From Nitrospirota bacterium (GTDB lineage: Bacteria > Nitrospirota > Thermodesulfovibrionia > Thermodesulfovibrionales > JdFR-86), in NCBI GenBank assembly GCA_963721805.1, contig CAVRJY010000001.1, forward strand, positions 320,001 through 384,000: a stretch of 64,000 bases of DNA. Direction: 5' to 3'. Each line of letters starts with the position of its first letter. Position 1 is the first letter of the stretch. Position numbers and translations under genes: made by a program. The notes below the pieces were generated by a model. That model was given only the letters and a program-made list of their open reading frames with translations, ran no database searches and was not told the DNA's origin. Below, piece by piece: positions 1,456-64,000 of this stretch.

Positions 1456-1845
1456 CTATTCGCCGCCCTGTGCGTTGTTATAGGCCCTGCCCACGCGGGC
1501 GACGATTGCTGCGAGCCTCCTGTCGAGCTTCTCGCCGGGGCTGCCGAGGATCTTGCGCACCGCTCGGTTGCTCAGCCCGTACTTCGCTGCCAGCCTGCGC
1601 GGGCACATCCCGCCGCGGTGGTCCTTGCGGATGGCGGCATTGCGCGCTTCGCGAAACAGGCCCTCGAGGCTGTTGATGTAGATCATCGTGCCCTTTAAGG
1701 CCTTGGCGATCCTGAGCGCGGCCTCCGGCCCCGCGATCTCCGCGATCCTTCCCACGTCCCCGGAGAACAGCCCGCTCCCGCCGGCCCGCCGCCCGGTTTC
1801 GTTCGATTCGCGATGCGCCAATGTGGTTGTCCGTTTCTCTATCAT
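1456..1845 (-). CDS. Mor/C-family phage transcription activator
   Basis: IAEIAGPEAALRIAKALKGTMIYI...RNAAIRKD...LAAKYGLSNRAVRKIL matches the Mu Mor/C pattern. Confidence 0.75.
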   Translation of the reverse strand: MIEKRTTTLAHRESNETGRRAGGSGLFSGDVGRIAEIAGPEAALRIAKALKGTMIYINSLEGLFREARNAAIRKDHRGGMCPRRLAAKYGLSNRAVRKILGSPGEKLDRRLAAIVARVGRAYNNAQGGE

Positions 1846-1866
1846 TTTCCTAACAATAGTTAATGG

Positions 1867-2061
1867 TTATACGAAGAAATAATCGGTCGGGCACTCAAGC
1901 GCCCTGGCGAGCTTGGCCAGGGTGTTTGCGCGCGGCTCTTTCTTTCCCTTCTCCAAGGCCGATATAGAGACCTGGCTGAGGCCGATTTCCTTGGAAAGGC
2001 GCACCTGCGTCTTTCCCAACCGCCTTCGCCTCACCGACATCCTCTCGGGGCTGAATTGCAT
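1867..2061 (-). CDS. Cro-like XRE HTH protein
   Basis: 64 aa, TQVRLSKEIGLSQVSISALEKGKKEP; RBS AGGAGG upstream. Confidence 0.85.
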   Translation of the reverse strand: MQFSPERMSVRRRRLGKTQVRLSKEIGLSQVSISALEKGKKEPRANTLAKLARALECPTDYFFV

Positions 2062-2079
2062 GTCCGCACCTCCTTTCGC

Positions 2080-2184
2080 TAACTATTGTTAGTTTATACC
2101 TCTCATTTTACTACTGTCAAGGGTAATACTTAACTTTAGTTAGTAAAAAGGGCTTGACAATTGCTTTTCTATAAACTATAGTTA
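2080..2184. promoter_or_regulatory. Divergent cI/cro promoters with TAACWWWWGTTA operators
   Basis: Palindromes at 2080-2091, 2131-2142 and 2173-2184 (a fourth at 1851-1862). Plus strand: TTGACA(2154)-17-TATAGT(2177). Minus strand: TTGACA(2120-2115)-18-TAAACT. Confidence 0.7.
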
Positions 2185-2188
2185 ATGC

Positions 2189-2836
2189 ATGGTGAAGATA
2201 AAGGCCACCGACATGAAGCGGATCGGCGGATTCATTAAGAGAAAGAGGATAGAGAAAAACCTCACCGCGCGCAGGCTGGCCGAACTCGTCGGGGTCTCGG
2301 ACGCCCATATCATCTATATAGAGAAGGGCCAGCGCGGGGCCTCCTTCGACATCATCGTAAACATACTCTCAGCGCTGGGCGAGACGGTCGAGGGCATGCT
2401 CGCCGAGATCAGGCGCAGCCGCTCCAACGTCGAGCCGGCGCGGATGGCCTCCCCGGCGCCGATCCCCGTGGTCTCATGGGTGACGGCCGGTAAGTGGCGC
2501 GAGGTCTGCGACGTCTTCGAGCCCGGCGACTCGGACGAGTGGATAGAGAGCGACGTCCGGGGCAGAAACGTCTTCGCGCTTCGCGTGACGGGGGATTCGA
2601 TGGACCCGGAGTTCAAGGACGGCGAGATCATCGTCGTGAACCCTCATATCGAGGCCACGCCGAACGACTATGTCGTGGTCAAAAACCCGAGGGGCGAGGC
2701 CACCTTCAAGCAGCTCAAGAAATACGGCCAGAGGTGGGTCCTGCACCCCTTAAACCCCAGGTACGAGGACGAGGAGGTCAGGAAGGGCGACTTCGCGATC
2801 ATAGGCAAGGTCGTCAAAAAAGAGAAACGGTATTAG
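2189..2836 (+). CDS. CI/LexA-like repressor (XRE HTH plus S24 peptidase)
   Basis: N-terminal HTH; VTAG cleavage-type site; FALRVTGDSM (Ser) and ATFKQL (Lys) catalytic motifs. Confidence 0.9.
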   Translation: MVKIKATDMKRIGGFIKRKRIEKNLTARRLAELVGVSDAHIIYIEKGQRGASFDIIVNILSALGETVEGMLAEIRRSRSNVEPARMASPAPIPVVSWVTAGKWREVCDVFEPGDSDEWIESDVRGRNVFALRVTGDSMDPEFKDGEIIVVNPHIEATPNDYVVVKNPRGEATFKQLKKYGQRWVLHPLNPRYEDEEVRKGDFAIIGKVVKKEKRY

Positions 2837-2898
2837 AAAGGCCAGGCCCGGGCGTTTGTAGGGCGCGCAGCCCGTATGGTAAAATTATCTTTGCCCTA

Positions 2899-2974
2899 GG
2901 GCGGTTAGCTCAGTTGGGAGAGCGCGGCGTTCGCAACGCCGAGGTCGAGGGTTCGACCCCCTTACCGTCCACCA
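2899..2974 (+). tRNA. tRNA-Ala(CGC)
   Basis: Cloverleaf, anticodon loop TTCGCAA, G3:U70 pair, encoded CCA. Confidence 0.95.
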
Positions 2975-3095: not shown

Positions 3096-5234
3096 TTACT
3101 GCCTGACGCCTACCATAAGCCTGATCGTGCCGTCGGTGGCCCCGTTGTCCATGGACATGAAAACCTGCGCGTCGGGGCTGAGCATGCCGCTGTCGCCCGT
3201 GGACATCGTCAGCTGTCCGCCGGTGCCCATCGTGTAGGTACCGCCGCTGGCGTATGGCTGCCCGTCGCTGCTGTAGAGGTCCTGGGCAGAGAAATTGCCG
3301 CTGCCGTCGAAGGTCATCGCGCTGACGCCGGTCCATGCGAGGTCTCCGGTGATCGCCGTCTGCGCGACCGTATAGTCGCCGGCCATCGATCCAGCATTAA
3401 GCCCGCTGGAGGTCGAGACGCCGATGGCCATGCCGGTCTTCCGGCCTGAGTTGCCGACCTGCACGAGGCTCAGAACGGCGCCGTCGGACCTCGCGAAGCC
3501 CTGCAGCTGCATGCCGTTGACCTTCATCGTAACCTTGCCGTTGTTCGCGACCTGGTACCTGCCGGACTTGGCCATGCCGTTGCCCGGTGCGCCTTCGCCG
3601 CCGTCGGTGTTGCCTCCGGTGGTGCCAGCGTTACGGTAGGACATCCTGCCGTTGCCCTTAAACTGGATGTTCACGAGGAACGGGGTCGAGGTGACCTGGC
3701 CTGTGCCGGTGGCCGTCATCGCCACGCCGCCTATGACATACGTTCCCTTAAGCTTGGACCTGCCCATGTGGCCGGAGGCCCTGAACCCGAGGCCGATGCT
3801 CAGGGCGTTGTCCCCGGCCGTCGAGGTGTCGGCCCATGCCATGGCGTTGCCGTCAGCTGACTGCGCGGACATGCCGCCGGTTGTTCCAAAGGACATAAGC
3901 CCTTCGGCGGTCGTGGTGACCATGCCGGTCATCCTGTTGCCCATGCCCATGGATGAGCCCGAGCCCATGGGGTTGCCGCTGAAGTTGCCCTGGCTGTCGA
4001 TGCCGAGGTTGTACATCTGGTCCCAGAAGGGCTGGCCGGATGAACGCCAGCCGAACATCCCGAAGACGTAGTTGCCGGCAGGACCCGTTCCGCCTGTGCC
4101 GCCTGTGCCTCCGGCCAGGGTCGTCGCCGTGGCGGTATTGCTCGCGGCCGATACGTTGCCGGCCGCGTCGGCTGCCTCGACGGTGTAGTTATAGGTGGTC
4201 GTAGGCGCGATCGCCATATCCGTGTAGCTGGTCATGGCCGTAGAGCCTATCTGCGTGCCGTCGCGGAAGACCTTGTATCCGGTCACGCCAACGTTATCGG
4301 AGGACGCGCCCCAGATGAGCTTGACCGAATTGGCCATCACCGATGCCGTGAGCCCGGAGGGTGCGGACGGCGGCGTGGTGTCGGTAACCGAGACGCTTAC
4401 GTTCACCGAGGCGCTTGCCGGGCTAGAGACGTTACCGGCCGCGTCCTTGGCCCATGCATACATGGTATTGGCGCCCGCGGAGCCGGCCATGTAGCTCGTG
4501 GGAGCGGTGGCCGACCAGCCGGCCGCGTTAGCGAGCGGCGCGGTAGCGGAAGTGGTCACCATGTATCCGGTCACGCCGACGTTATCGGTGGCCGTGAAGC
4601 TCGTGATCATCATCGTCATCGAGGATGACATGGCCGGCATGCTGAAGCCGGTGATCGTCGGTGGCGTGGTATCGGTCGTCGCGCCGCCTGCGGAAACCGT
4701 GAACGAATTGGTCGATACGACTTCCATCCCATGGTTGGGGTTGTTCGGGTCAGGCGTCCAGCCCGTGCCGAATACGCTGGATGAGGCGTCGTACTGGTTG
4801 CCGTACCACGCGACCTTCCAGGTGTAAGTGCCCGGGGTCGAAGGCGCGGGCGAGTTCAGGACTATGGGATAGCCCATGCCGCCGCCCATACCGCCGCTCA
4901 TCGCGCCGGTGCTGCGGGCAAGCTCGACGCCGTTTTGGTCAAGGAGGAGGCCGCGGATCCAGCCGGTCCGGTAGCCGCCGGTCATTGTTACGCTCACGGA
5001 CTCGCCGGGGGCGTACGTGGCCTTGGAGGTCGTACCGGTTATGTTAATGACGTTTTTGTTGCTGTTAGAGTGCGTGCCGTGCGAGTGGCAGCCGTTACAG
5101 GTAGTGGGCGATGCGGCGTGGCAGCTTGTGCAGTTTGCAGCGAAATAGCTCGATTCAGCACTGGCGTTCGACGGCATGAATCCAAACGCCGCGAAGCCCA
5201 GGATACAGCAGAGGATTATTAAACTTTTTTGCAT
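3096..5234 (-). CDS. Secreted diheme c-type cytochrome with Ig/FN3 domains (paralog A, Met-rich)
   Basis: Start MQKSL at 5234 behind RBS AGGAGAG; signal peptide; CTSCH and CNGCH; DTTPP...AWAKDAAGNVS and FN3 (PSAPSGLTA...YNYTVEAADAAGN) modules. Confidence 0.8.
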   Translation of the reverse strand: MQKSLIILCCILGFAAFGFMPSNASAESSYFAANCTSCHAASPTTCNGCHSHGTHSNSNKNVINITGTTSKATYAPGESVSVTMTGGYRTGWIRGLLLDQNGVELARSTGAMSGGMGGGMGYPIVLNSPAPSTPGTYTWKVAWYGNQYDASSSVFGTGWTPDPNNPNHGMEVVSTNSFTVSAGGATTDTTPPTITGFSMPAMSSSMTMMITSFTATDNVGVTGYMVTTSATAPLANAAGWSATAPTSYMAGSAGANTMYAWAKDAAGNVSSPASASVNVSVSVTDTTPPSAPSGLTASVMANSVKLIWGASSDNVGVTGYKVFRDGTQIGSTAMTSYTDMAIAPTTTYNYTVEAADAAGNVSAASNTATATTLAGGTGGTGGTGPAGNYVFGMFGWRSSGQPFWDQMYNLGIDSQGNFSGNPMGSGSSMGMGNRMTGMVTTTAEGLMSFGTTGGMSAQSADGNAMAWADTSTAGDNALSIGLGFRASGHMGRSKLKGTYVIGGVAMTATGTGQVTSTPFLVNIQFKGNGRMSYRNAGTTGGNTDGGEGAPGNGMAKSGRYQVANNGKVTMKVNGMQLQGFARSDGAVLSLVQVGNSGRKTGMAIGVSTSSGLNAGSMAGDYTVAQTAITGDLAWTGVSAMTFDGSGNFSAQDLYSSDGQPYASGGTYTMGTGGQLTMSTGDSGMLSPDAQVFMSMDNGATDGTIRLMVGVRQ

Positions 5235-5430
5235 TGGTACTCTCCTTTTTGGTTGTTCAGGCATAATACGAAGATGACGGCAGGCAGCGTCTTTGCTTGA
5301 TCGCACGGTGTCGTCTCTCTTGCCCCCTTTCGTTTTAGTTCGCTTGTTCTCGGTCCGCATGCGCCGGGACGCAACTCTCCTTATGCCCCATTGCGCACCT
5401 CCGCTGTGCCCCCTTCTGAAGGGAGGGGGA

Positions 5431-5555
5431 AATAAAAAACCGCCAGAGCCATGTTTCCTCTGGCGGCCCGGCTGACATGAAACGGGATGCGCTCCGTTCG
5501 TTAGTCCCGTTGCTCTGCGCCCCGGGGTTTCCCGCGGTTTGCTCTGAGCAGAGTC
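5431..5555 (-). promoter_or_regulatory. GEMM-I cyclic dinucleotide riboswitch (A20, cGAMP-type) with terminator
   Basis: Minus strand CTCTGCTCAGAGCAAACCGCGGGAAACCCCGGGGCGCAGAGCAACGGGACTAA...ATGTCAGCCGGGCCGCCAGAG, then CTCTGGCGG-TTTTTT. Confidence 0.88.
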
Positions 5556-5683
5556 CTTGATGCCTTCGATCTTGTGCATATAGGATAGCACCAAAATATG
5601 AAAACGCTGTGAAGCGGGCGCATATGAAATATGATTATTTTGTGAACCCCCGATCCGCCTCTTTAAGGTGGCTTATGGGGGGG

Positions 5684-5728
5684 CCCATCCAGGCGGGGGG
5701 GGTATGAGGAGGGCCCCGCCTGGATGGG
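5684..5728. terminator. GC-rich hairpin/terminator downstream of paralog B
   Basis: CCCATCCAGGCGGGG...CCCCGCCTGGATGGG. Confidence 0.55.
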
Positions 5729-5744
5729 TTAAAAACTTTTGCTC

Positions 5745-8155
5745 TTACTCTTTTACGCCGATTCGCAGTCCGATAGAGCCGTCAGGGTTTCCCCTGTCTA
5801 CGGACATGAAAACCTGCTCGTCGGGGCTGATCATGCCGCTGTCTCCGGTGGACATCGTAAGCTGTCCGCCGGCCGCGACCCGGTAGGTCCCGCCAGCCGC
5901 GTACGGCTGCCCGTCGCTGCTGTAGAGGTCCTGGGCCGAGAAGTTGCCGTTGCCGTCGAAGTCCATCCTGCTGATGCCGGTCCACGCGGAGCTGCCCGTA
6001 AGTACCGTCTGGGCCACCGCATAGCCGCCGGAAAGGGAGGCTGAACTCATGCCGGTCGAGACCGGGATACCGACGGCGATGCCGTCCTTAAGGCTGGAGC
6101 CGGGCTGCACAAGGCTGATGAGCCTGCCGCCGTCCTTGACCGAGCCCTTAAGGTTCATATTATTTATCGTCATCGAGACTGAGCCGCTGCGCGAGACCGA
6201 ATACTTGCCCGAATATATCTTAGTACTGGTCACGCTGGTATCCCTCGATGCGGTCCTGGAGCCGGAGTCGTCACCGGTGCCGCTCGTGCTGCTGACGGCG
6301 CTGTAGGTCATGGTGCCGTCGCCCTTGAACGTCATGTTATACAGGTAAGCCTTCGCCGTCGTCTGACCGGTGCTGTTTTCCACCGTGGTGACGCCGCCCA
6401 GCAGGTACTTGCCCTTGAGCGTGGCATTGCTCATGCGCGTGGTGGGCTTCGCGAACCCCAGCCCGATGCTCAGGGAGTTGTCCGCGGTCTCTGAGGAGTC
6501 AGCCCACGCAAGGACCTTTCCGTCCGAGGACGGGGCCGCGATGCCGTCGAGAGCGTCAAAGTACAGGAGCCCTTCATCGGTCAGGCTGACCGTGCCGGTG
6601 CCGGTCGAGGAGCCGTCGTCGGATGAGCCCACCTGTGAGTAGGTGAAGTTGCCCTGACCGTCGAGCCCGAGGTTATACAGCTTGTCCCAGAAATTGTCCT
6701 GAGACGATTGCCATCCGAAGAGGTCGAGCGAGAAGCTGCCGCTTACTCCGGTGGCAGCGCCGCCTGCCTGGGTCGTGACCGTCGCGGTGTTGCTGGGCGC
6801 CGATACGTTGCCGGCAGCGTCGGTGGCTTCAACGGTGTAGTTATAGGTGGTCGATGCGGCGACCGTCATGTCCGTGTAACCGGCCGCGGCCGAGGTGCCT
6901 ATCTGCGCGCCGTCACGGAGGATCAGGTATCCGGTCACGCCTACGTTGTCAGAAGACGCGTTCCAGGTGAGCTTGACCGAATTGGTGGCCGTCGAGGCCG
7001 TGAGCCCTGTGGGTGCGGAAGGGGCTACCGTGTCCGAGATCGTTATCGTAACTGAAGCGCTCATCGAGGCGGATACGTTGCCCGCTGCGTCCTTAGCCCA
7101 TGCATAGAGGGTTTTGGTCCCTGCGGTGCTAAACGTATAGCTCGCGGGAGCGCTAGCCGACCATCCTGCCACGGTAGCAAGCGGCTTGGTCGAGGACTCG
7201 GTCACCATGTAGCCGGTGACGCCGTGTTGTCGGTGGCCATCATGCTTGAGATCGGTACGGTGAGCGAGGACGAGGTGGCCGGTATGCTGAAGCCGGTCAT
7301 CGTCGGTGCCATCGTATCGGGAAGCGTTATCGTAACTGAAGCGCTCATCGAGGAAGATACGTTGCCCGCGGCGTCCTTGGCCCATGCATAGAGGGTTTTG
7401 GTCCCTGCGGTGCTAAACGTATAGCTCGCGGGAGCGCTAGCCGACCATCCTGCCACAGTAGCAAGCGGTGCGGTCGCGGACTCGTTTACGAGGTATCCGG
7501 TGACGGCCGTGTCGTCGGTGGCCATCATGCTTGAGATCGGTACGGTGAGCGAGGACGAGGTGGCAGGTATGCTGAAGCCGGTCATCGTCGGTGCCATCGT
7601 ATCTACCATGGCCACGACCGTGAACGAGTTTGCGCTGACGACTTCCATTCCATGGTTTGGGTTGTTCGGATCAGGCGTCCAGCCGGCTCCGAATATGCTG
7701 GATGAGGCGTCGTACTGGTTGCCGTACCACGCGACCTTCCAGGTGTAAGTGCCCGGAGTCGAAGGCGCAGGCGAGTTCAGAACTATGGGGTAGCCGGGTC
7801 CGCCACCCATGCCGCCGCTTGCGGTGCCGGTGCTGCGGGCAAGCTCCACGCCGTTTTGGTCAAAGAGGAGGCCGCGGATCCAACCGGTCCTGTAGCCGCC
7901 GGTGAGCGTTACGTTTACGAGCTCTCCGGGGGCGTAACTGGCCTTGGAGGTGGTCCCGGCTACGTTAATTACGTTTTTTGTGCTGTTAGAGTGGGTACCG
8001 TGCGAGTGGCAGCCGTTGCAGGTAGACGGCGATGCCGCGTGGCAGCTCGTGCAGTACGTCGCGAAATAGGTCGACTGTGCGCTGGCGTCCGATGCCATGA
8101 ATCCAAATGCTGCAATCCCTAAGATGCAGCACAGGATAATTAAACTTCTTTGCAT
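5745..8155 (-). CDS. Secreted diheme c-type cytochrome with Ig/FN3 domains (paralog B); one frameshift near 7221
   Basis: Start MQRSL at 8155; CTSCH/CNGCH; joins ORFs 7202-8185 and 5745-7385. The second internal repeat lacks one C relative to the first (ACGGCCGTC vs ACGGCGTC). Confidence 0.8.
7041..7608. repeat. Near-identical tandem ~285-bp (95-aa) intragenic domain duplication
   Basis: CGTTATCGTAACTGAAGCGCTCATCGAGG occurs at 7041 and 7325; period 284 = 285 minus the frameshift base. Confidence 0.85.
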
Positions 8156-8349
8156 TAATACGCTCCTTTTAGTTTGGTTCGGCATAATACGAAGATGACG
8201 GCAACTGGCGTCATTGCTTGGTTAGGCGATGTCGTCTCCCGAGCCTCCTTTCATTTTGGATGGCTTTTTGTTTGCCCGTATGCACAAGGACGCACCTCTC
8301 CCTATGGCCCATCGCGCACCTCCGCTGTGCCCCTCCTGAAGGGAGGGGA

Positions 8350-8474
8350 AATAAAAAACCGCCAGAGTAGGTTTCCCTCTGGCGGCCCGGCTGACATGAA
8401 ACGGGATGCTTCCCGCTCGTTAGTCCCGTTGCTCTGCGCCCCGCGGTTTCCCGAGGTTAGCTCTGAGCAGAGTC
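8350..8474 (-). promoter_or_regulatory. GEMM-I cyclic dinucleotide riboswitch (A20, cGAMP-type) with terminator
   Basis: Minus strand CTCTGCTCAGAGCTAACCTCGGGAAACCGCGGGGCGCAGAGCAACGGGACTAA...ATGTCAGCCGGGCCGCCAGAG, then CTCTGGCGG-TTTTTT. Confidence 0.85.
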
Positions 8475-8733
8475 TATTTTACTGTTTCGATTTCTTGCGC
8501 TTATCATAGCATGCGCAATATGAAAAACTTGTGAAGGGATTAGCCCCACTAATATGCTGCAGGCCGCAAGCCGCGCCCTCCCGCCCATGCCGGACGGCGT
8601 ATCAGCCGGGGCAGGGTTGCGGCCGGCCGCGCGTGTGCTACAATTAATATAGACATCAGCGCCCGCCACGGCCTGATTCCGAAGCGCAGACTCATAGCAA
8701 GCAACGACGCAGGTTCAAGGAAAAAGAGAGTAC

Positions 8734-10320
8734 ATGTCAAGCAAGATCCGGTCACTTATCAGGGACGAGAAGCCGCTAAATCCATCACCCGCAACGGACC
8801 CTTCACAAGCCTCAGTATCGCCCATCAGGGCCCTGCTCGTATACCCGGAATTCCCCGACACCTTCTGGAGCTTCAGGTACGCCCTGAAGTTCATCCACAG
8901 AAAGGCGAGCAGCCCGCCGCTGGGGCTGCTGACCGTCGCGGCGATGCTCCCCGGCGCCTGGGAGAAGCGGCTGGTGGACATGAACGTAAAGGCGCTGCGC
9001 GACGATGATCTCAGGTGGGCGGACCTCGTCCTGATAAGCGCGATGTCCGTGCAGAAGGCCTCGGTCAAGGCAGTGATCGCGAGGTGCAAGGCCGCCGGGG
9101 TCAGGGTCGTCGCCGGGGGGCCGCTTTTTACGACGGAATACGAGGCCTTCGAGGACGTCGACCACCTGGTCTTGAACGAGGCCGAGCTCACGCTGCCCCG
9201 GTTTCTCGAAGACCTCGCAAACGGTGCTGCCAAGCGCGTTTATACGACCGACCAGTGGGCCGACCTGCGGACGACTCCCATCCCGCTTTGGCGGCAAATC
9301 AAGGTGAGGCACTACGCCTCGGTCAATATCCAGTACTCGCGCGGCTGCCCGTTTAACTGCGAGTTTTGCGACATCACGCTGCTTTGCGGCCGCACCCCGC
9401 GCACGAAGGACAGCGGGCAGATCGTCGCCGAGCTCGAGAGCGTCTACCGCTCGGGGTTCAGGGGGCAGGTCTTCTTCGTCGACGACAACTTCATCGGGAA
9501 CAAGAAGAAGCTCAAGGAGGACGTGCTCCCGGCCATCATCGAATGGATGGACAGCCGAGGCCACCCTTTCGGCTTCAATACGCAGGCTTCCATAGAGCTC
9601 TCGGACCACGAGGACCTTATGCGCCTTATGGTGCGCGCCGGGTTCGACATGGTATTCGTCGGCATCGAGACCCCGCACGAGCAGAGCCTCGCGGAGTGCA
9701 GCAAGCAGCAGAACAAGAACCGCGACCTGCTTGCGAGCGTCAGGAAGATCCAGAATGCCGGCATCGAGGTGCAGGGGGGCTTTATCGTCGGGTTCGACAG
9801 CGATCCCCATACGATCTTCGATACCCAGATAAAATTCATCCAGGCAAGCGGCGTGGTCACGGCCATGGTCGGAATTCTTAACGCGCTGCCGCGCACGCGG
9901 CTATACGAGAGGCTCAAGCAGGAACACAGGCTGCTGGCCGAGACCTCGGGCGACAACACCGACCTCTCGACGAACTTCATCACGAAGATGGACCCGGAGC
10001 TCCTTGCCACCGGCTACAAGAAGGTCATCGGCACACTGTATTCGCCCCGGCACTACTATAAGAGGCTCAGGACGTTCATGAAGGAATACCACCCGCCCAA
10101 GAGGAAATATAAGGCGTTCAGGATCCGGCCCAACTACATGGGCGCGTTCTTCAAGGCCGCCGTAGTGCTCGGGCTGACCGGAAAAGAGCGGTTCCAATAC
10201 TGGAGGCTCCTGTTTTGGACGATGTCGCACCGTCCCGCGCAGATGTCACAGGCCATTACGCTTGCGATCTACGGCCACCATTTCAGGAAGGTGTTCGACA
10301 AGCGCCTCAGGGATGCTTGA
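8734..10320 (+). CDS. B12-binding radical SAM protein (DUF4070-type C-terminus)
   Basis: PPLGLLTVAA, GGP, SRGCPFNCEFC (CxxxCxxC), FFVDDNF, GFIVGFDSD. Confidence 0.9.
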   Translation: MSSKIRSLIRDEKPLNPSPATDPSQASVSPIRALLVYPEFPDTFWSFRYALKFIHRKASSPPLGLLTVAAMLPGAWEKRLVDMNVKALRDDDLRWADLVLISAMSVQKASVKAVIARCKAAGVRVVAGGPLFTTEYEAFEDVDHLVLNEAELTLPRFLEDLANGAAKRVYTTDQWADLRTTPIPLWRQIKVRHYASVNIQYSRGCPFNCEFCDITLLCGRTPRTKDSGQIVAELESVYRSGFRGQVFFVDDNFIGNKKKLKEDVLPAIIEWMDSRGHPFGFNTQASIELSDHEDLMRLMVRAGFDMVFVGIETPHEQSLAECSKQQNKNRDLLASVRKIQNAGIEVQGGFIVGFDSDPHTIFDTQIKFIQASGVVTAMVGILNALPRTRLYERLKQEHRLLAETSGDNTDLSTNFITKMDPELLATGYKKVIGTLYSPRHYYKRLRTFMKEYHPPKRKYKAFRIRPNYMGAFFKAAVVLGLTGKERFQYWRLLFWTMSHRPAQMSQAITLAIYGHHFRKVFDKRLRDA

Positions 10321-10407
10321 TGGTTATTGTTAGAACTTGAGGCGGCGCGGATGCGCCTTTGAGGAGACCGCGCCGAGGCTGGAAGGCATGCCCGGGCGGA
10401 TTGCGGG

Positions 10408-11661
10408 TCAGGCTTGGGCCTCGACGCCCTTTCGGATCTCCTCAAGGTTGTTACCGAGCATCTTTACGAAGAACTTAAAACTTTCCATGTCGTAGTTGTC
10501 CGGCTGGTTCTGGATGATGCTCAGGGCCTTATAGGGGCTCATCGGCGACTGGTAGGGCCGCGCGGTCGTGATCGCGTCATAGGTGTCCGCGATCGCGGTT
10601 ATGCGGCCCGTCAGGTGGATCGCCTCGCCCTTGAGGCCGAAGGGATAGCCCACGCCGGAGAGCTTCTCGTGGTGCTCCATCAGGGGGTAGAAGGACTCCG
10701 GCGGCATGTCGCGCTTCATGCGGACGAGTTTCAAGCCCTTCTGGACATGGGCCTTCATGATGCGGAACTCGTCTTCCGTGAGCTTGCCCGGCTTGTTGAG
10801 TATCTCGGGCGGCACCTCGCTCTTGCCGATGTCGTGCAGCAGCGAGCCGATCCCCAGCGGCATGAGCTCGCGCTCCCGGTCCATGCCCATGGCCATCGCG
10901 AGCGCGAGCGTCAGGACGCTGACCTCGACGGAGTGGGCGTAAGTGTAATAGTCGTATTTGTTCAGGGTGAGGATGCTGGTGGTCAGGCCGCCGCTGTCGT
11001 GTATCGAGGCGATCAGGTCCCCGACCGCGTCCTTGCAAAGCTCGACGGTGTTGCCGCTCCTGGGGTCGGTCAGGAGCTCCTTGACTACGATCTTGGTGTT
11101 TTCCTTGATGATCGCGTTTTTCACGCGCTGGGCGTCCTTGCCCGTGCCGGTATGCGATCCGAGCTGCTTTAGGTACTCGCGGTAGCGGGCGATGTCCTTG
11201 ATGTCTATCAGGAGCTCGCCGGGCGCATCGAGGATCTCGCCGGTGAGCTCGATATCGCGGCCGGAGTAGACCGCTATGGGCGCGATATCGATGTCGTGCT
11301 TGCTGTACAGCGAGAAATCGACCGCGCTGCCGCGCTGCAGGGTGCCCTTCTCGATCTGGAGGCGCTCCTCCTTCTCGTGCGAATACCGCTTGAACTCCTC
11401 GGGCGTGATTATGCGCTCCTCGACTCGCCGGGTGTTGGGTGCGGGCGGGGGAGGGGCCTGCTGCTCCTTTGCGGCCTCGGACTCGTCGAGGTCCTCGCGG
11501 ACGAAGACGTACTCGATCCCGGCGTCCCTGATAGCCTGGAGCTGCTCCTCGTTGCGGATATGGAACTTGTGGCTTAAAAAAGGCGTCTTGAACCAGGACA
11601 TGTCTATCCCGTCAAGGAACATCCCTATGCGCAGATCTTCTACGGGTATCCTGGTTCGCAT
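10408..11661 (-). CDS. HD-GYP phosphodiesterase with DUF3391-like N-terminus (RxxQ variant)
   Basis: YTYAHS, LLHDIGK, HHEKLSGVGYP, ADTYDAITTARPYQ. Confidence 0.9.
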   Translation of the reverse strand: MRTRIPVEDLRIGMFLDGIDMSWFKTPFLSHKFHIRNEEQLQAIRDAGIEYVFVREDLDESEAAKEQQAPPPPAPNTRRVEERIITPEEFKRYSHEKEERLQIEKGTLQRGSAVDFSLYSKHDIDIAPIAVYSGRDIELTGEILDAPGELLIDIKDIARYREYLKQLGSHTGTGKDAQRVKNAIIKENTKIVVKELLTDPRSGNTVELCKDAVGDLIASIHDSGGLTTSILTLNKYDYYTYAHSVEVSVLTLALAMAMGMDRERELMPLGIGSLLHDIGKSEVPPEILNKPGKLTEDEFRIMKAHVQKGLKLVRMKRDMPPESFYPLMEHHEKLSGVGYPFGLKGEAIHLTGRITAIADTYDAITTARPYQSPMSPYKALSIIQNQPDNYDMESFKFFVKMLGNNLEEIRKGVEAQA

Positions 11662-14601: not shown

Positions 14602-15477
14602 ATGTCTGTTATGCGTTATCTGAGCCCCGGCAGGATGCTCGCGCTCAACGCCGTGCTCGGCGTGGCGCTCGTGCTCGCCGCCCTGCTCGTCGTGCGCGAC
14701 ACGGTCTCGCTGCGGCGGGCCGCGTCGAGCCCGCCCCCGGCGGCACCCGCCAAGGCCGCAGCCCATGAGGGGGCCAAGCCCTTCGAGTCCTACGCCTCGG
14801 CCGTCGAGCAGGGCAACCCCTTCGGCATCCCCGGCGGCAAGCTAGAGCGCATCACCGCCAAGACCGGTGCGGCGCAGTCCGCGCTCGAGGTGAAGGTCGT
14901 GGGCATCATCGCCTGGCCCGGGGGGCGCGGATACGCGATGCTGAGTTCGCCGAGCATCCCTCAGGACGTCTATAGGGCCGGCCGCGAGATACCCGGCGTA
15001 GGCAGGTTAAAGGCGGTATACCCCTATAAGGTAATAATCACCTCCGGGGGGAAGGACGTCGAGCTCAAGCTCATCGAGGACTCGGCGATGCCGGTCTCAG
15101 CACCGGAGGCAATTAAACCCGCTGGCGGGCGCGGAGAGTTCGCGCGGCGCACCTCGGACAACGCGTTCAGCGTCGATAGGGAGGCGCTCCGCGAGTCGCT
15201 GGAGAACCCCCAAAAACTGATGACCGACGCCCGGATGGTCCCGAACATGGAGGGCGCGTCCCAGCACGGCTTCATACTGCGCGAGATCAGGCCGGGCGGG
15301 ATATACCAAAAGCTCGGGCTCAAAAACGGCGACGTGCTGCTTCGGGTCAACGAGTTTGAGATATCGGACACGGAAAGCGCCCTGCAGGCCTTCACCGCGC
15401 TTAAGGGCCTCGACCGCGTGGCGCTCGACATCGTGCGCGGCGGAGCGAACATGACCTTGACTTATTCGGTCCAATAG
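14602..15477 (+). CDS. gspC: Type II secretion protein GspC (PDZ)
   Basis: N-terminal TM; C-terminal PDZ (KLGLKNGDVLLRVN); precedes a secretin. Confidence 0.8.
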   Translation: MSVMRYLSPGRMLALNAVLGVALVLAALLVVRDTVSLRRAASSPPPAAPAKAAAHEGAKPFESYASAVEQGNPFGIPGGKLERITAKTGAAQSALEVKVVGIIAWPGGRGYAMLSSPSIPQDVYRAGREIPGVGRLKAVYPYKVIITSGGKDVELKLIEDSAMPVSAPEAIKPAGGRGEFARRTSDNAFSVDREALRESLENPQKLMTDARMVPNMEGASQHGFILREIRPGGIYQKLGLKNGDVLLRVNEFEISDTESALQAFTALKGLDRVALDIVRGGANMTLTYSVQ

Positions 15478-15488
15478 GTGAAGAATTA

Positions 15489-17672
15489 ATGGCTTATATG
15501 CTGCGCAACACACTTATAACCCTGCTGATCGCCGCCGCGCTCGTAATGGGCGCAGGCTCGGCGCACCTCTATGCCGCCGGCCCGGAGGGCGGGGTCACGT
15601 TTAACCTCTCGAACGTCGAGATCGCGAACGTCGCCAAGTTCGTAAGCGACGTCACGGGCAAGAACTTCATGTTCGACGACCGCGTGACCGGCAAGATCAC
15701 GATCATCGCCCCCACGAAGATCAGCCCCGACGACGCCTTCAAGCTCTTCGTCTCGGTCCTGAGATTAAAGGGCTACGCGCTCGTGCCTACCGGCGTGGAC
15801 GCATACAAGATCGTGCCCGCGGCCGAGGCCAAGCAGTCCGGCGTCGACCTGCTCGCGCCGGACAAGACGATCCCGATGGACGACAATACGGTCGCGCGGC
15901 TCATAAGCCTGACGTACATATCGGCCGACGACGCCCTGAAGTTCCTCCAGCCGGTCGTATCGAAGTCCGGGCACATATCGTCCTTCGGCCCGGGGAACCT
16001 GCTGCTGGTAGTGGATTCAGGGATGGTCGTCGACAAGGTCCTGAAGCTCGTCGAGAGCATCGACCTGCCGGCCCAGAGCGAGGAGCCGGACGTCGTGTTC
16101 CTGCAAAACGCCGGGGCCGAGGCCGTGGCCGCTACGCTTAACGACGGGCTCTCGCGCTCGGCGGCCAGACGGGGCCCGGAGCAGCAGCCCGCACGCGCGG
16201 TGGCCGACCGCAGGCTCAACGCGGTCGTACTGTTCGGCGACCGCTCGGCCAAGGAGGGCATGAAGCGCCTGGTCGCGCGCCTCGACGTCAAGGCCGACTC
16301 CACGCAGGGCGCGATAAACGTGTATTTCCTGGAGAACGCCGCGGCCGAGGACATCGCCAAGGTGCTCGAAAACATCAGGAAGGTCTCGCAGGAGGCCGCC
16401 TCGAAGCAGCAGCCTGGGATTCAGTCCATCCAGGCCGCCCAGCCGACGCGCTCGCCGTTTGAGTCCGCCTCGGGAATGAGCATCACGCCGGATAAGGCCT
16501 CGAACTCCCTGATAATCATAGCCTCGCCCTCGGACTACGCGAGCCTCGTGCAGGTGATAAAGAAGCTCGACCGCCGCAGGCGGCAGGTGTACGTCGAGGC
16601 CATGGTAGTGGAGGCCTCGGTCGACAAGACCCGCGACCTCGGCACCGAGTGGCGGGCGACCGCCCTCGACAGCAAGCGCGCCCCGATAGTGGTCGGCGGC
16701 GTCGGCACGATAGACGCCACCGCCGTCAGCGCGATCCTGAGCGGGCTTTCGGGCGCGACCGTCGGCGGGCTCGGTAATTTCTTCTCGGTGCCGGTGACAA
16801 ACCCCGACGGCACTACCGGGACGCTCTCGGTGCCGGGCTATGCCGCGCTATTTAGCGCGAGCATCTTCAGCTCGGCCGTAAACGTCCTCTCCACGCCCCA
16901 GATCCTCACGTCCGACAACGCCGAGGCCGAGATCATCGTCGGCGAGAACGTCCCGTTCATCACCCAAAACAACGTCAATACCGTGAATTCCGGCGTCGTC
17001 TCAAACTACATAGAGCGCAAGGACGTCGGCATCACGCTTAAGCTCACGCCCCAGATCACCGAGGGCGACTACGTCAAGCTCGACATCTACCAGGAGATCT
17101 CGGCCCTCGAGAACATCTCGTCGAACAACCTCGTCTCGATCATCACTACGGTCGGCCCCACCACGACCAAGCGCTCGACCAAGACGGACGTCGTGGTCCG
17201 CGACGGCCAGACCGTCGTGATCGGCGGGCTCATGCAGGACAAGGTAAACGATACGATTACCAAGGTGCCGCTGCTGGGCGACATACCGCTGCTGGGCTGG
17301 CTTTTCAAAAACAGTTCGAAGGAGCACACGAAGACCAACCTCCTCGTCTTCCTGACCCCGCACATCATCAGGGACTCCAGGGAGCTCGAGGGCCTGACCT
17401 CACACAAGCGCACGGAGATCTCCGGGGATGACGACCTTTACATCGACGGCGAACTCGTGGTCAGCTTCGGCCCCGGAGTGGCCGCCGAGAAGGCAGCCGA
17501 GATACTCAGGTCCAAGGGCGTGACCGTCCTGGGCACCCTCTCGGACGGCAGGTACATAGTGCGCACTCTCGTGCCCGAGCGCACGGCCGAGACGATGGGG
17601 GAACTCAAGTCCACCCCGGGCGTGGTGGACGTCTTCAGGCGGCTCCGCACCGAGAGCCTTACCGCCCAATAA
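15489..17672 (+). CDS. gspD: Type II secretion secretin GspD with an extra C-terminal domain
   Basis: N0-N3 domains; VYVEAMVVE, NVLSTPQILT, KVPLLGDIPLLGWLF, TNLLVFLTPHII. Confidence 0.93.
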   Translation: MAYMLRNTLITLLIAAALVMGAGSAHLYAAGPEGGVTFNLSNVEIANVAKFVSDVTGKNFMFDDRVTGKITIIAPTKISPDDAFKLFVSVLRLKGYALVPTGVDAYKIVPAAEAKQSGVDLLAPDKTIPMDDNTVARLISLTYISADDALKFLQPVVSKSGHISSFGPGNLLLVVDSGMVVDKVLKLVESIDLPAQSEEPDVVFLQNAGAEAVAATLNDGLSRSAARRGPEQQPARAVADRRLNAVVLFGDRSAKEGMKRLVARLDVKADSTQGAINVYFLENAAAEDIAKVLENIRKVSQEAASKQQPGIQSIQAAQPTRSPFESASGMSITPDKASNSLIIIASPSDYASLVQVIKKLDRRRRQVYVEAMVVEASVDKTRDLGTEWRATALDSKRAPIVVGGVGTIDATAVSAILSGLSGATVGGLGNFFSVPVTNPDGTTGTLSVPGYAALFSASIFSSAVNVLSTPQILTSDNAEAEIIVGENVPFITQNNVNTVNSGVVSNYIERKDVGITLKLTPQITEGDYVKLDIYQEISALENISSNNLVSIITTVGPTTTKRSTKTDVVVRDGQTVVIGGLMQDKVNDTITKVPLLGDIPLLGWLFKNSSKEHTKTNLLVFLTPHIIRDSRELEGLTSHKRTEISGDDDLYIDGELVVSFGPGVAAEKAAEILRSKGVTVLGTLSDGRYIVRTLVPERTAETMGELKSTPGVVDVFRRLRTESLTAQ

Positions 17673-63190: not shown

Positions 63191-63285
63191 AATATCGGGC
63201 GCTCAGCACGTTGGGTCCGGCCTATTAATTATAACTTGAGCATAAGGCCCCACCGGTGTATAATACCCGCAATGGGGGATTTGCC

Positions 63286-64000
63286 GTGAAGCTCACGCAT
63301 GATGTTGTGACCATCGATGGCAAACTGTTGTTGCCTGCCGGGACAGCGCTCTCGGATTCTGTGCTTGACGGGCTCTCATCCGGGAAAAAGGCATCCGGGG
63401 TCAAGACGTTCCCCCTTATGGAGCACAATAATGTCGAGGAGAACCTCCTTACTTTCTTGTGCTCATATCCCTACAATAACCTCTTTCGTGAGGAAGACGA
63501 CATCTCCTTGCTGCTGGATGAGATGCGCGAGGTGCGGCTTTCCATCGAGGTGCTGGAATCTCTCGACTATTTTATCGCGCGTGACCCGTACAGCTACAGG
63601 CATTTCCTCCTCGTGTTCGCGGTATCCACGCTCCTGGCGAAAGACCTTGTCCCGGACAAGGAGGCCCGCATAATGCTGACGGCCACGGGACCTGCGCACG
63701 ATATAGGGAAGACGTGCGTTCCGATAGGCGTGCTGAAAAAGGTCGCGCCCCTCACCGCTGAGGAGAAGGGCATGATCGACAACCATTCTCTGGCCGGGTA
63801 TGTGCTGCTCGGATATTATATCGGAGACTTCGGGCACCTCGCGCCCATAGTCGCCAGAGACCACCATGAACGCCGGGACGGCTCCGGCAAGCCCTCCGGC
63901 AAGAGGCTGGACAATTTCATGACGGAAATAATAGCGGCCTGCGATGTTTATGATGCCCTGATATCGCCGAGGCCGTACAGAAACGAGGCGTATAATAACA
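63286..64000 (+). CDS. HD-GYP domain protein, truncated by the window end
   Basis: From GTG 63286: YSYRH, AHDIGK, HHERRDGSGKP, CDVYDALISPRPYR. Confidence 0.85.
   Translation, partial: MKLTHDVVTIDGKLLLPAGTALSDSVLDGLSSGKKASGVKTFPLMEHNNVEENLLTFLCSYPYNNLFREEDDISLLLDEMREVRLSIEVLESLDYFIARDPYSYRHFLLVFAVSTLLAKDLVPDKEARIMLTATGPAHDIGKTCVPIGVLKKVAPLTAEEKGMIDNHSLAGYVLLGYYIGDFGHLAPIVARDHHERRDGSGKPSGKRLDNFMTEIIAACDVYDALISPRPYRNEAYNN

Follow-up and report, generated by a model that had tools for sequence, protein, structure and literature searches.

Does an uncultured member of the Nitrospirota use cGAMP (3',3'-cyclic GMP-AMP) as a second messenger to control its exported haem proteins? The question is raised by a stretch of 64,000 nt from a contig of a Nitrospirota bacterium, here called the window, which belongs to a genome of 2.78 Mb that is 94% complete; in it, two riboswitch aptamers of the GEMM-I type with an A at the ligand-reading position lie upstream of genes for exported dihaem proteins, and a gene for an HD-GYP phosphodiesterase with the motif RPYQ lies close by. 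The first-pass annotation of this DNA had seen two independent specificity signatures in one locus and had suggested a cGAMP regulon; the signatures are indeed at the right positions and a candidate synthase was found, but the lineage-wide scope of the suggestion does not hold. On balance, we consider it probable that the Hypr-cGAMP pathway, known from Geobacter, Myxococcus and Bdellovibrio, works in this genome and switches on exported haem proteins. Judged from sequence, the three signatures, in the reader, the writer and the eraser, are real, independent and located at functionally defined positions. In the scheme we propose, a GAF-GGDEF protein encoded at contig C3:994-2472 would make 3',3'-cGAMP; four A-type GEMM-I aptamers, each with an intrinsic terminator, would sense it; the outputs would be two exported dihaem Ig/FN3 proteins, of which one is frameshifted, plus, from elsewhere in the genome, an exported octahaem cytochrome and a small secreted protein; and the HD-GYP enzyme would lower the level of cGAMP while sparing the pool of cyclic di-GMP (c-di-GMP). 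The parts that lie in the window are as follows.

3096..5234, minus strand: exported protein 1, 712 residues, with a signal peptide, CxxCH motifs at residues 35-39 and 46-50 and Ig-like/FN3-like repeats
5432..5468, minus strand: terminator 1, with an 11-bp stem, a 9-nt loop and six U's, present in both the minimum-free-energy and the centroid fold
5459..5553, minus strand: GEMM-I aptamer 1, RF01051 51.2 bits, model positions 1-87, A at base 5543
5745..7385, minus strand: continuation of exported protein 2 in another frame, FN3-like with a C-terminal domain
7202..8155, minus strand: N-terminal part of exported protein 2, 317 residues, ending through a frameshift
8351..8387, minus strand: terminator 2, built as terminator 1
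8378..8472, minus strand: GEMM-I aptamer 2, RF01051 47.8 bits, model positions 1-87, A at base 8462
10408..11661, minus strand: DUF3391-HD-GYP protein, candidate cGAMP-preferring eraser, RPYQ at 10549-10560

Both aptamers score above the gathering score (35) of the Rfam covariance model for c-di-GMP-I (GEMM-I) riboswitches, RF01051, over the whole length of the model. This Infernal comparison, which the first-pass annotation had proposed, bears out its reading of both aptamers as CAG-A-GC(A/T)AACC with A at bases 5543 and 8462: at model position 11, which is unpaired and directly 5' of the first two-base-pair helix, the consensus is G and the window aptamers have A (CAG-A-GC-AAACC in aptamer 1 and CAG-A-GC-UAACC in aptamer 2). 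We take this position to be G20 of Vc2 and A14 of Gs1761. The assignment fits PMC6140456, and it fits the A found at the same position in 35/35 aptamers of the Geobacter type. According to that paper, it is G20 of Vc2 that recognises the ligand's first guanine, and A stands in its place in cGAMP riboswitches. This exchange of A for G, the sequence mark of GEMM-Ib, is seen in both window aptamers and in all four aptamers of the genome. The Rfam alignment shows two further residues to be retained: the C after AG, at the position of C92, whose partner is the ligand's second guanine, and the A after CGC, which intercalates. The two leaders, aptamers included, share 84% identity over 320 nt, which means that the duplication took in both the gene and its switch; a second, degenerate aptamer was not found in either leader with RF01051 down to E=1.

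The expression platform is built into the 3' end of each aptamer, where the 5' arm of the terminator hairpin (GCCGCCAGAG) overlaps it, and the CAGAG of this arm can pair either with CUCUG at the 5' end of the aptamer or with CUCUG of the hairpin's own 3' arm. A simple terminator scan overlooked both hairpins on account of the 9-nt loop. We aligned ten copies of this aptamer subtype, coming from at least six genomes: four from the studied genome, five from four relatives and one from a metagenome-assembled genome (MAG) labelled Nitrospirae. The layout of aptamer and overlapping terminator is common to all ten, and the terminator stem is kept with compensatory changes at two pairs. The closing helix has compensatory changes as well: the copy from one related genome (G021) has CUUUG/CAAAG in place of CUCUG/CAGAG, and in the copy at locus L082 the hairpin has G-C, and the closing helix U-G, where the others have an A-U pair. 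By RNAalifold, 12 of the 35 consensus pairs are changed on both sides. Covariation and an expression platform, as expected of a GEMM-I riboswitch, are thereby both in evidence. Binding of the ligand would hold CAGAG in the closing helix, so that the terminator could not form and transcription would run on. The architecture is observed, and the direction of the switch that it implies is likely ON; deletion of gacA, which lowers the expression of genes downstream of GEMM-Ib (PMC6456294), is in line with such a switch.

The controlled genes in the window encode two paralogues, whose first 182 residues are 87% identical. Both proteins begin with an N-terminus that resembles a signal peptide (in protein 1 the hydrophobic stretch ends in ASA), followed by CTSCH (residue 35) and CNGCH (residue 46). 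Across 13 aligned homologues, residues C35, C38, H39, C46, C49, H50, H52 and H168 do not vary, and the invariant CxxCH pair together with His52 and His168 would fit two bis-His haems. All the sequence features of a c-type cytochrome are there (CxxCH, an export signal and conserved distal ligands), with putative haem attachment. The Pfam scan of the dihaem protein returned no match to a cytochrome family, and the haem domain of this family of dihaem Ig-repeat proteins has no Pfam model. A look-up in the ESM Atlas gave a best score of 0.88 to clusters without names and was uninformative; the C-terminal ~330 residues of protein 1 have no domain assignment. Each aptamer had been described as preceding a secreted FN3 protein with two CxxCH motifs, and of this description the motifs and the export signal stand, while the Pfam fn3 matches are slightly below the cut-off (24.3 and 20.9 bits versus 25) and the second gene is frameshifted. 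It is split by a 1-base deletion near position 7222, in the second copy of an Ig-like repeat of ~95 residues, where the deletion site (window 7150-7390, minus strand) reads GGCCGTC in repeat copy 1 and GGCGTC in copy 2; the gene may be a genuine pseudogene, or the assembly may be wrong here.

Geobacter, Geomonas and Desulfuromonadales supply the nearest homologues of the dihaem protein, 45-58% identical over the N-terminal half. For the order to which the genome belongs we used a set of 60 related genomes, 33 of them with GEMM-I; among these 60 the dihaem domain was found once (G044, 57% identity), and no GEMM-I was found upstream of that homologue. This patchy distribution, with the best homologues in the Geobacter group, suggests exchange with that group. 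Among 40 loci of dihaem-protein homologues in Geobacter, Geomonas and Desulfuromonadales, 21 have GEMM-I aptamers upstream, and all 35 of these aptamers are A-type. The likeness to the Geobacter GEMM-Ib switches (Kellenberger 2015; Nelson 2015; cited through PMC6456294 and PMC6140456), of which Gs1761 upstream of pgcA (PDB 4YAZ) is an example, lies in the GEMM-I fold, in A at the G20 position, in the exported haem-protein genes that follow, and in GEMM-Ib-type aptamers upstream of the Geobacter and Geomonas homologues of the window's own dihaem protein. Unlike the Geobacter-group loci with aptamers (among L048-L088), which mostly have tandem A-type pairs ~200 nt apart, the window has one aptamer per gene, in a Nitrospirota host and with a predicted ligand preference. 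These homologues also led us to consider that the genome itself came from a relative of Geobacter, which is ruled out by RpoB, whose placement the first-pass annotation had recommended, and by the names attached to homologues of the RPYQ HD-GYP (Thermodesulfovibrionales, Nitrospirae, Magnetoovum and Thermodesulfovibrio). RpoB has 73% and 72% identity to two MAGs labelled Nitrospira sp. and Nitrospiraceae, 62-63% to a 'Nitrospirae bacterium' MAG, ~60% to an Anaeromyxobacteraceae MAG and 57% to Geobacter sp. AOG1; the organism is a member of the Nitrospirota and not a relative of Geobacter.

All of the genome's four GEMM-I aptamers are A-type and share one subtype. The third (C1:553390) lies between a gene for a CRP/FNR-type regulator and one for an exported protein with eight CxxCH motifs, an octahaem cytochrome; the fourth (C2:504832) is upstream of a secreted protein of 227 residues that belongs to no family. 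The gene that follows the aptamer thus encodes a CxxCH protein in three of the four cases. In two genomes, the studied one (L004:634-1308, on C1) and a relative (G008, L202:524-1273), a regulator of the CRP/FNR type with a cNMP-binding domain is encoded beside an A-type aptamer of this subtype; in combination with the GAF domain of the synthase candidate, the arrangement is a hint that cyclic mononucleotides may be connected with the pathway.

The candidate for the writer came out of the search for a Hypr GGDEF that had been suggested at the outset. The genome has 23 GGDEF matches, three of them with Ser at the position of the guanine-reading Asp, and one of the three resembles GacA.

Contig C3:994-2472 (L011:511-1992): candidate Hypr GAF+GGDEF protein, 493 residues, adjoining secA

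Its best match among solved structures is 6D9M, the Hypr domain of G. metallireducens GacA (173.5 bits, against 119.6 for PleD). In the 6D9M alignment, the motif GHLVGS is identical to that of GacA and places Ser at the guanine-reading position (GacA Ser348); the signature reads RYGGDEF, with Asp; Asn stands at the 339 position; and the cross-dimer position of Tyr304 is Ser (FNSRY) rather than Arg. According to the 'Goldilocks' rule, enzymes with Ser need GGDEF with Asp rather than GGEEF, and Ser at the cross-dimer Tyr304 position is among the residues listed for cGAMP-producing enzymes (PMC6456294). Five residues before GGDEF, RTID resembles an I-site. The Ser, the GGDEF Asp and the non-Arg cross-dimer residue are therefore all found together, and we regard the protein as a candidate cGAMP synthase. 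It shares with GacA (PDB 6D9M, 5VS9) and GacB the exchange of Ser for Asp, the GGDEF Asp, the equivalent of Asn339, the non-Arg cross-dimer residue and an RxxD site, and with GacB of Myxococcus the GAF-GGDEF architecture; unlike GacA and GacB, it has an N-terminal extension of ~170 residues, a predicted product, and a gene that adjoins secA and is near-universal in an order of Nitrospirota.

A full-length relative of this protein is present in 46 of the 60 genomes (E <=1.6e-85), and GHLxGS, GGDE[F/Y] and FN[S/T]RY are kept in all 29 orthologues that were fetched; no relative was found in two families, f3 (0/5) and f10 (0/4). By homology, the Hypr-type GGDEF is a core gene of the order. The same two families are also without GEMM-I (0/5 and 0/4), yet have a DUF3391-HD-GYP of the RPYK type in 5/5 and 4/4 genomes, the reverse of what the window's own family shows. 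In the studied genome, the region of secA, the Hypr-type GGDEF and a Ras-like GTPase occurs twice, with 94-96% protein identity: the copy at C3:1-3972, on a 20-kb contig, is intact and that at C1:1344105-1347434 has several frameshifts, which points either to strain heterogeneity in the assembly or to a decaying duplicate. A second GGDEF of the Ser type (L022:901-2049; GHMAGS, GGDEY, cross-dimer Asp) matches GacA and WspR about equally (97.5 vs 97.0 bits) and was not counted as Hypr. A CD-NTase of the SMODS type (PF18144), which could have been a competing source of cGAMP, was not found in the genome, other DncV-type families having been left out of this search.

The third signature is that of the eraser. 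The HD-GYP protein, which is recognised by the HD_5 model with an E-value of 1.5e-27, has intact catalytic motifs (HDIGK at residue 276 and HHEK..GVGYP at 330-340), and phmmer aligns its RPYQ to DRPYK of PmGH (4MCW/4MDZ), with Arg and Gln on R314 and K317; V-cGAP3 has RPYR here. In Wright et al. (bioRxiv 10.1101/600031), R314 and K317 of PmGH are described as contacting a guanine, Gln518 is said to give PmxA its specificity for cGAMP, which Q518R reverses, and Rxx(Q/N) is counted in 4.69% of 11,504 HD-GYP domains. The claim that RxxQ/N is a signature of cGAMP-selective HD-GYPs is thus in print, and RPYQ is where it had been reported, in a gene 1.9 kb away from aptamer 2. Because Gln occupies the fourth residue of Rxx(K/R), the protein would prefer cGAMP, a substrate preference predicted from the motif. 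It resembles PmxA of Myxococcus, Bd2325 and a candidate from G. metallireducens (Wright et al., bioRxiv 10.1101/600031 / Mol Microbiol 2020) in the intact HD and GYP motifs and in this Gln; unlike the PmxA type, it has an N-terminal DUF3391 in place of Cache-HAMP, no membrane segments were noted in it, its family is otherwise RPYK, and its substrate is a predicted one. The window contains a second HD protein (63256-63999, cut by the window end), which had been put forward as an HD-GYP with the usual motif; it does have RPYR (63970-63981), but GSGKP stands where GYP is expected, and it may not be an active HD-GYP.

How common the A-type aptamer is among relatives was read from 120 of the 123 over-threshold GEMM-I aptamers, in 33 genomes: 20 are A-type (17%) and 100 are G-type, the former occurring in 12 genomes, four of which have the window's subtype. 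As the downstream gene we took the first open reading frame of >=60 residues that starts within 500 nt, a crude way of calling; for 109 of the 120 aptamers it gave a frame of >=70 residues, which was scanned for families. The genes that follow G-type aptamers encode secreted FN3/PKD/Ig proteins, sigma factors, glycosidases and, in five cases, cytochromes; those that follow A-type aptamers encode FG-GAP, CARDB, beta-propeller and FN3/PKD proteins, a transglutaminase, a CRP-like regulator and a Rec-HD-GYP protein (RTYK). In the last case, in the related genome G031, the A-type aptamer is directly 5' of the gene for the receiver-HD-GYP protein with its canonical motif (L184:216-1283), an arrangement by which a dinucleotide sensor and a phosphodiesterase could form a feedback loop.

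The findings that weigh against a cGAMP pathway are best taken together with the alternatives that they bear on. Under the first of these, the main rival, which we hold to be possible but rather unlikely, the aptamers are bispecific or are mainly sensors of c-di-GMP, A being tolerated through protonation; they would respond to the ~20 canonical GGDEF proteins, and the cytochromes would form a c-di-GMP regulon. The resemblance to proven cGAMP-selective aptamers is limited in the alignments. Around the pocket, the window aptamers (CAG-A-GC-AAACC ... CGCAGAGC) are not like the validated Geobacter GEMM-Ib (AAU-A-CU-AAACC ... GCGGAAAGC): they keep a Vc2-like G-C/C-G helix beside A20, where the Geobacter type has C-G/U-G, and the junction differs as well. 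Nor is A20 sufficient according to PMC6140456, in which Vc2 G20A binds c-di-GMP at 53 nM and cGAMP at 120 nM, a natural Clostridium A20 aptamer (Cbe 1-2) is bispecific for the two, and Gs1761 too binds c-di-GMP, by way of a protonated A. With Vc2 G20A and Cbe 1-2 the window aptamers have in common A20 on an otherwise Vc2-like core (PMC6140456); unlike these two, which bind both ligands about equally, they occur alongside a Hypr-type synthase in one genome and constitute a conserved subtype of their own. Our analysis thus takes A20 to be necessary and to permit the binding of cGAMP, but in itself to be no proof of selectivity, and the statement of the first-pass annotation that A20 marks the GEMM-Ib cGAMP switches is right about the position of the signature and too strong about what it guarantees.

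The genomic setting bears on the same alternative. Ordinary GGDEF genes number about 20 in the studied genome, which lacks G-type GEMM-I, and the A-type aptamers could therefore be its c-di-GMP sensors. In many relatives, the Hypr-type GGDEF occurs with only G-type aptamers or with none, which means that the writer and the A-type reader do not co-vary, and the cytochrome genes that follow aptamers in relatives are all behind G-type copies (5/5). Across this order, A-type aptamers and cytochromes do not go together as a rule; they do so in the studied genome and in the Geobacter group, and the proposed cGAMP regulon for surface redox proteins of the lineage shrinks to this one genome. Against a plain c-di-GMP regulon stand the A in all four aptamers here versus 17% in relatives, the presence of a GacA-like synthase with all of its signatures, the Q-type HD-GYP close by and the uniformly A-type aptamers at the Geobacter-group dihaem genes.

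The second alternative concerns the eraser: the HD-GYP would be an ordinary c-di-GMP phosphodiesterase, or one specialised in some other way, that lies near the riboswitches by coincidence, its Gln being a quirk of the lineage that lacks the effect known from PmxA. We are doubtful of it, although several observations point that way. The gene is a separate transcription unit beyond an opposite-strand radical SAM gene, and what links it to the riboswitches is proximity and the signature. Its family is absent from ten genomes of the same taxonomic family; the three RxxQ HD-GYPs that were met in relatives are in genomes with only G-type aptamers; a scan of metagenomes gave no close RPYQ orthologue with its neighbourhood (best 38% identity), and among 400 Nitrospirota representatives no RPYQ HD-GYP orthologue above 45% identity was found. 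Of five active RxxQ/N candidates, moreover, three were selective and two degraded both dinucleotides, according to Wright et al. (bioRxiv 10.1101/600031). Coincidence is harder to reconcile with the distribution of the Gln, which aligns exactly with the base-contacting K317 of PmGH. The motif is readable in 13 of the 20 HD_5 matches of the genome; they are 11 R/K, this one Q and an S that belongs to a degenerate protein. Among 119 database homologues six have Q, and RPYQ is kept in the four nearest (87, 71, 51 and 49% identity), making the Gln a conserved feature of a small clade whose sister group has RAYR, the wider family having RPYK. The chance that one gene falls <=3 kb from any of the three riboswitch loci of the 2.78-Mb genome is ~0.8%, a figure calculated post hoc.

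It is very improbable that the aptamers sense another dinucleotide (c-di-AMP, i.e. cyclic di-AMP, or a linear product, for example) or that the leaders have lost their function as switches: the junction CGCAGAGC is unlike that of all characterised members and one of the two riboswitch-controlled genes in the window is broken by its frameshift, but the C92 equivalent and the intercalating A are kept, and fold and terminator are conserved with compensatory changes throughout the ten copies.

A cGAMP pathway in this genome would add candidates from a new phylum, a distinct aptamer subtype and a GAF-type Hypr enzyme conserved across an order. A full-text literature search returned no paper in which Hypr enzymes or cGAMP riboswitches are connected with Nitrospirota, the taxon lists of the primary papers of 2015-2016 being outside its reach. 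With candidates for writer, reader and eraser in one genome and the synthase type in 46 of 60 genomes, the age and breadth of cGAMP signalling become testable, as does the question of whether cGAMP switches the exported cytochromes of uncultured Nitrospirota, and a natural A20 subtype on a Vc2-like core offers a way to ask what besides A20 sets the selectivity of an aptamer. More tentatively, the GAF-type Hypr GGDEF may be ancestral in the order, and the CAGAGC...CGCAGAGC aptamers may be an independently derived cGAMP-selective subclass that has replaced all c-di-GMP riboswitches here and has brought extracellular cytochromes under cGAMP, the eraser being a dedicated HD-GYP of the Q type, a picture that we put forward as speculative. 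If it were true, 3',3'-cGAMP would be a primary second messenger of a whole deep lineage and not a speciality of the former Deltaproteobacteria.

The remaining features concern the surroundings. Genes for a Mor-family activator, a LexA-like HTH-S24 peptidase and tRNA (window 1456-2971) adjoin the 3' end of the first dihaem gene, and the guanine-plus-cytosine content around them shows no clear island. Two further entries complete the list, the first with no evident link to the module and the second a possible export route that we give as context.

8734..10320, plus strand: gene for a B12-binding radical SAM/DUF4070 protein, between aptamer 2 and the HD-GYP gene
14602..17672, plus strand: type II secretion genes for a GspC-like protein and a GspD secretin, which may provide an export route

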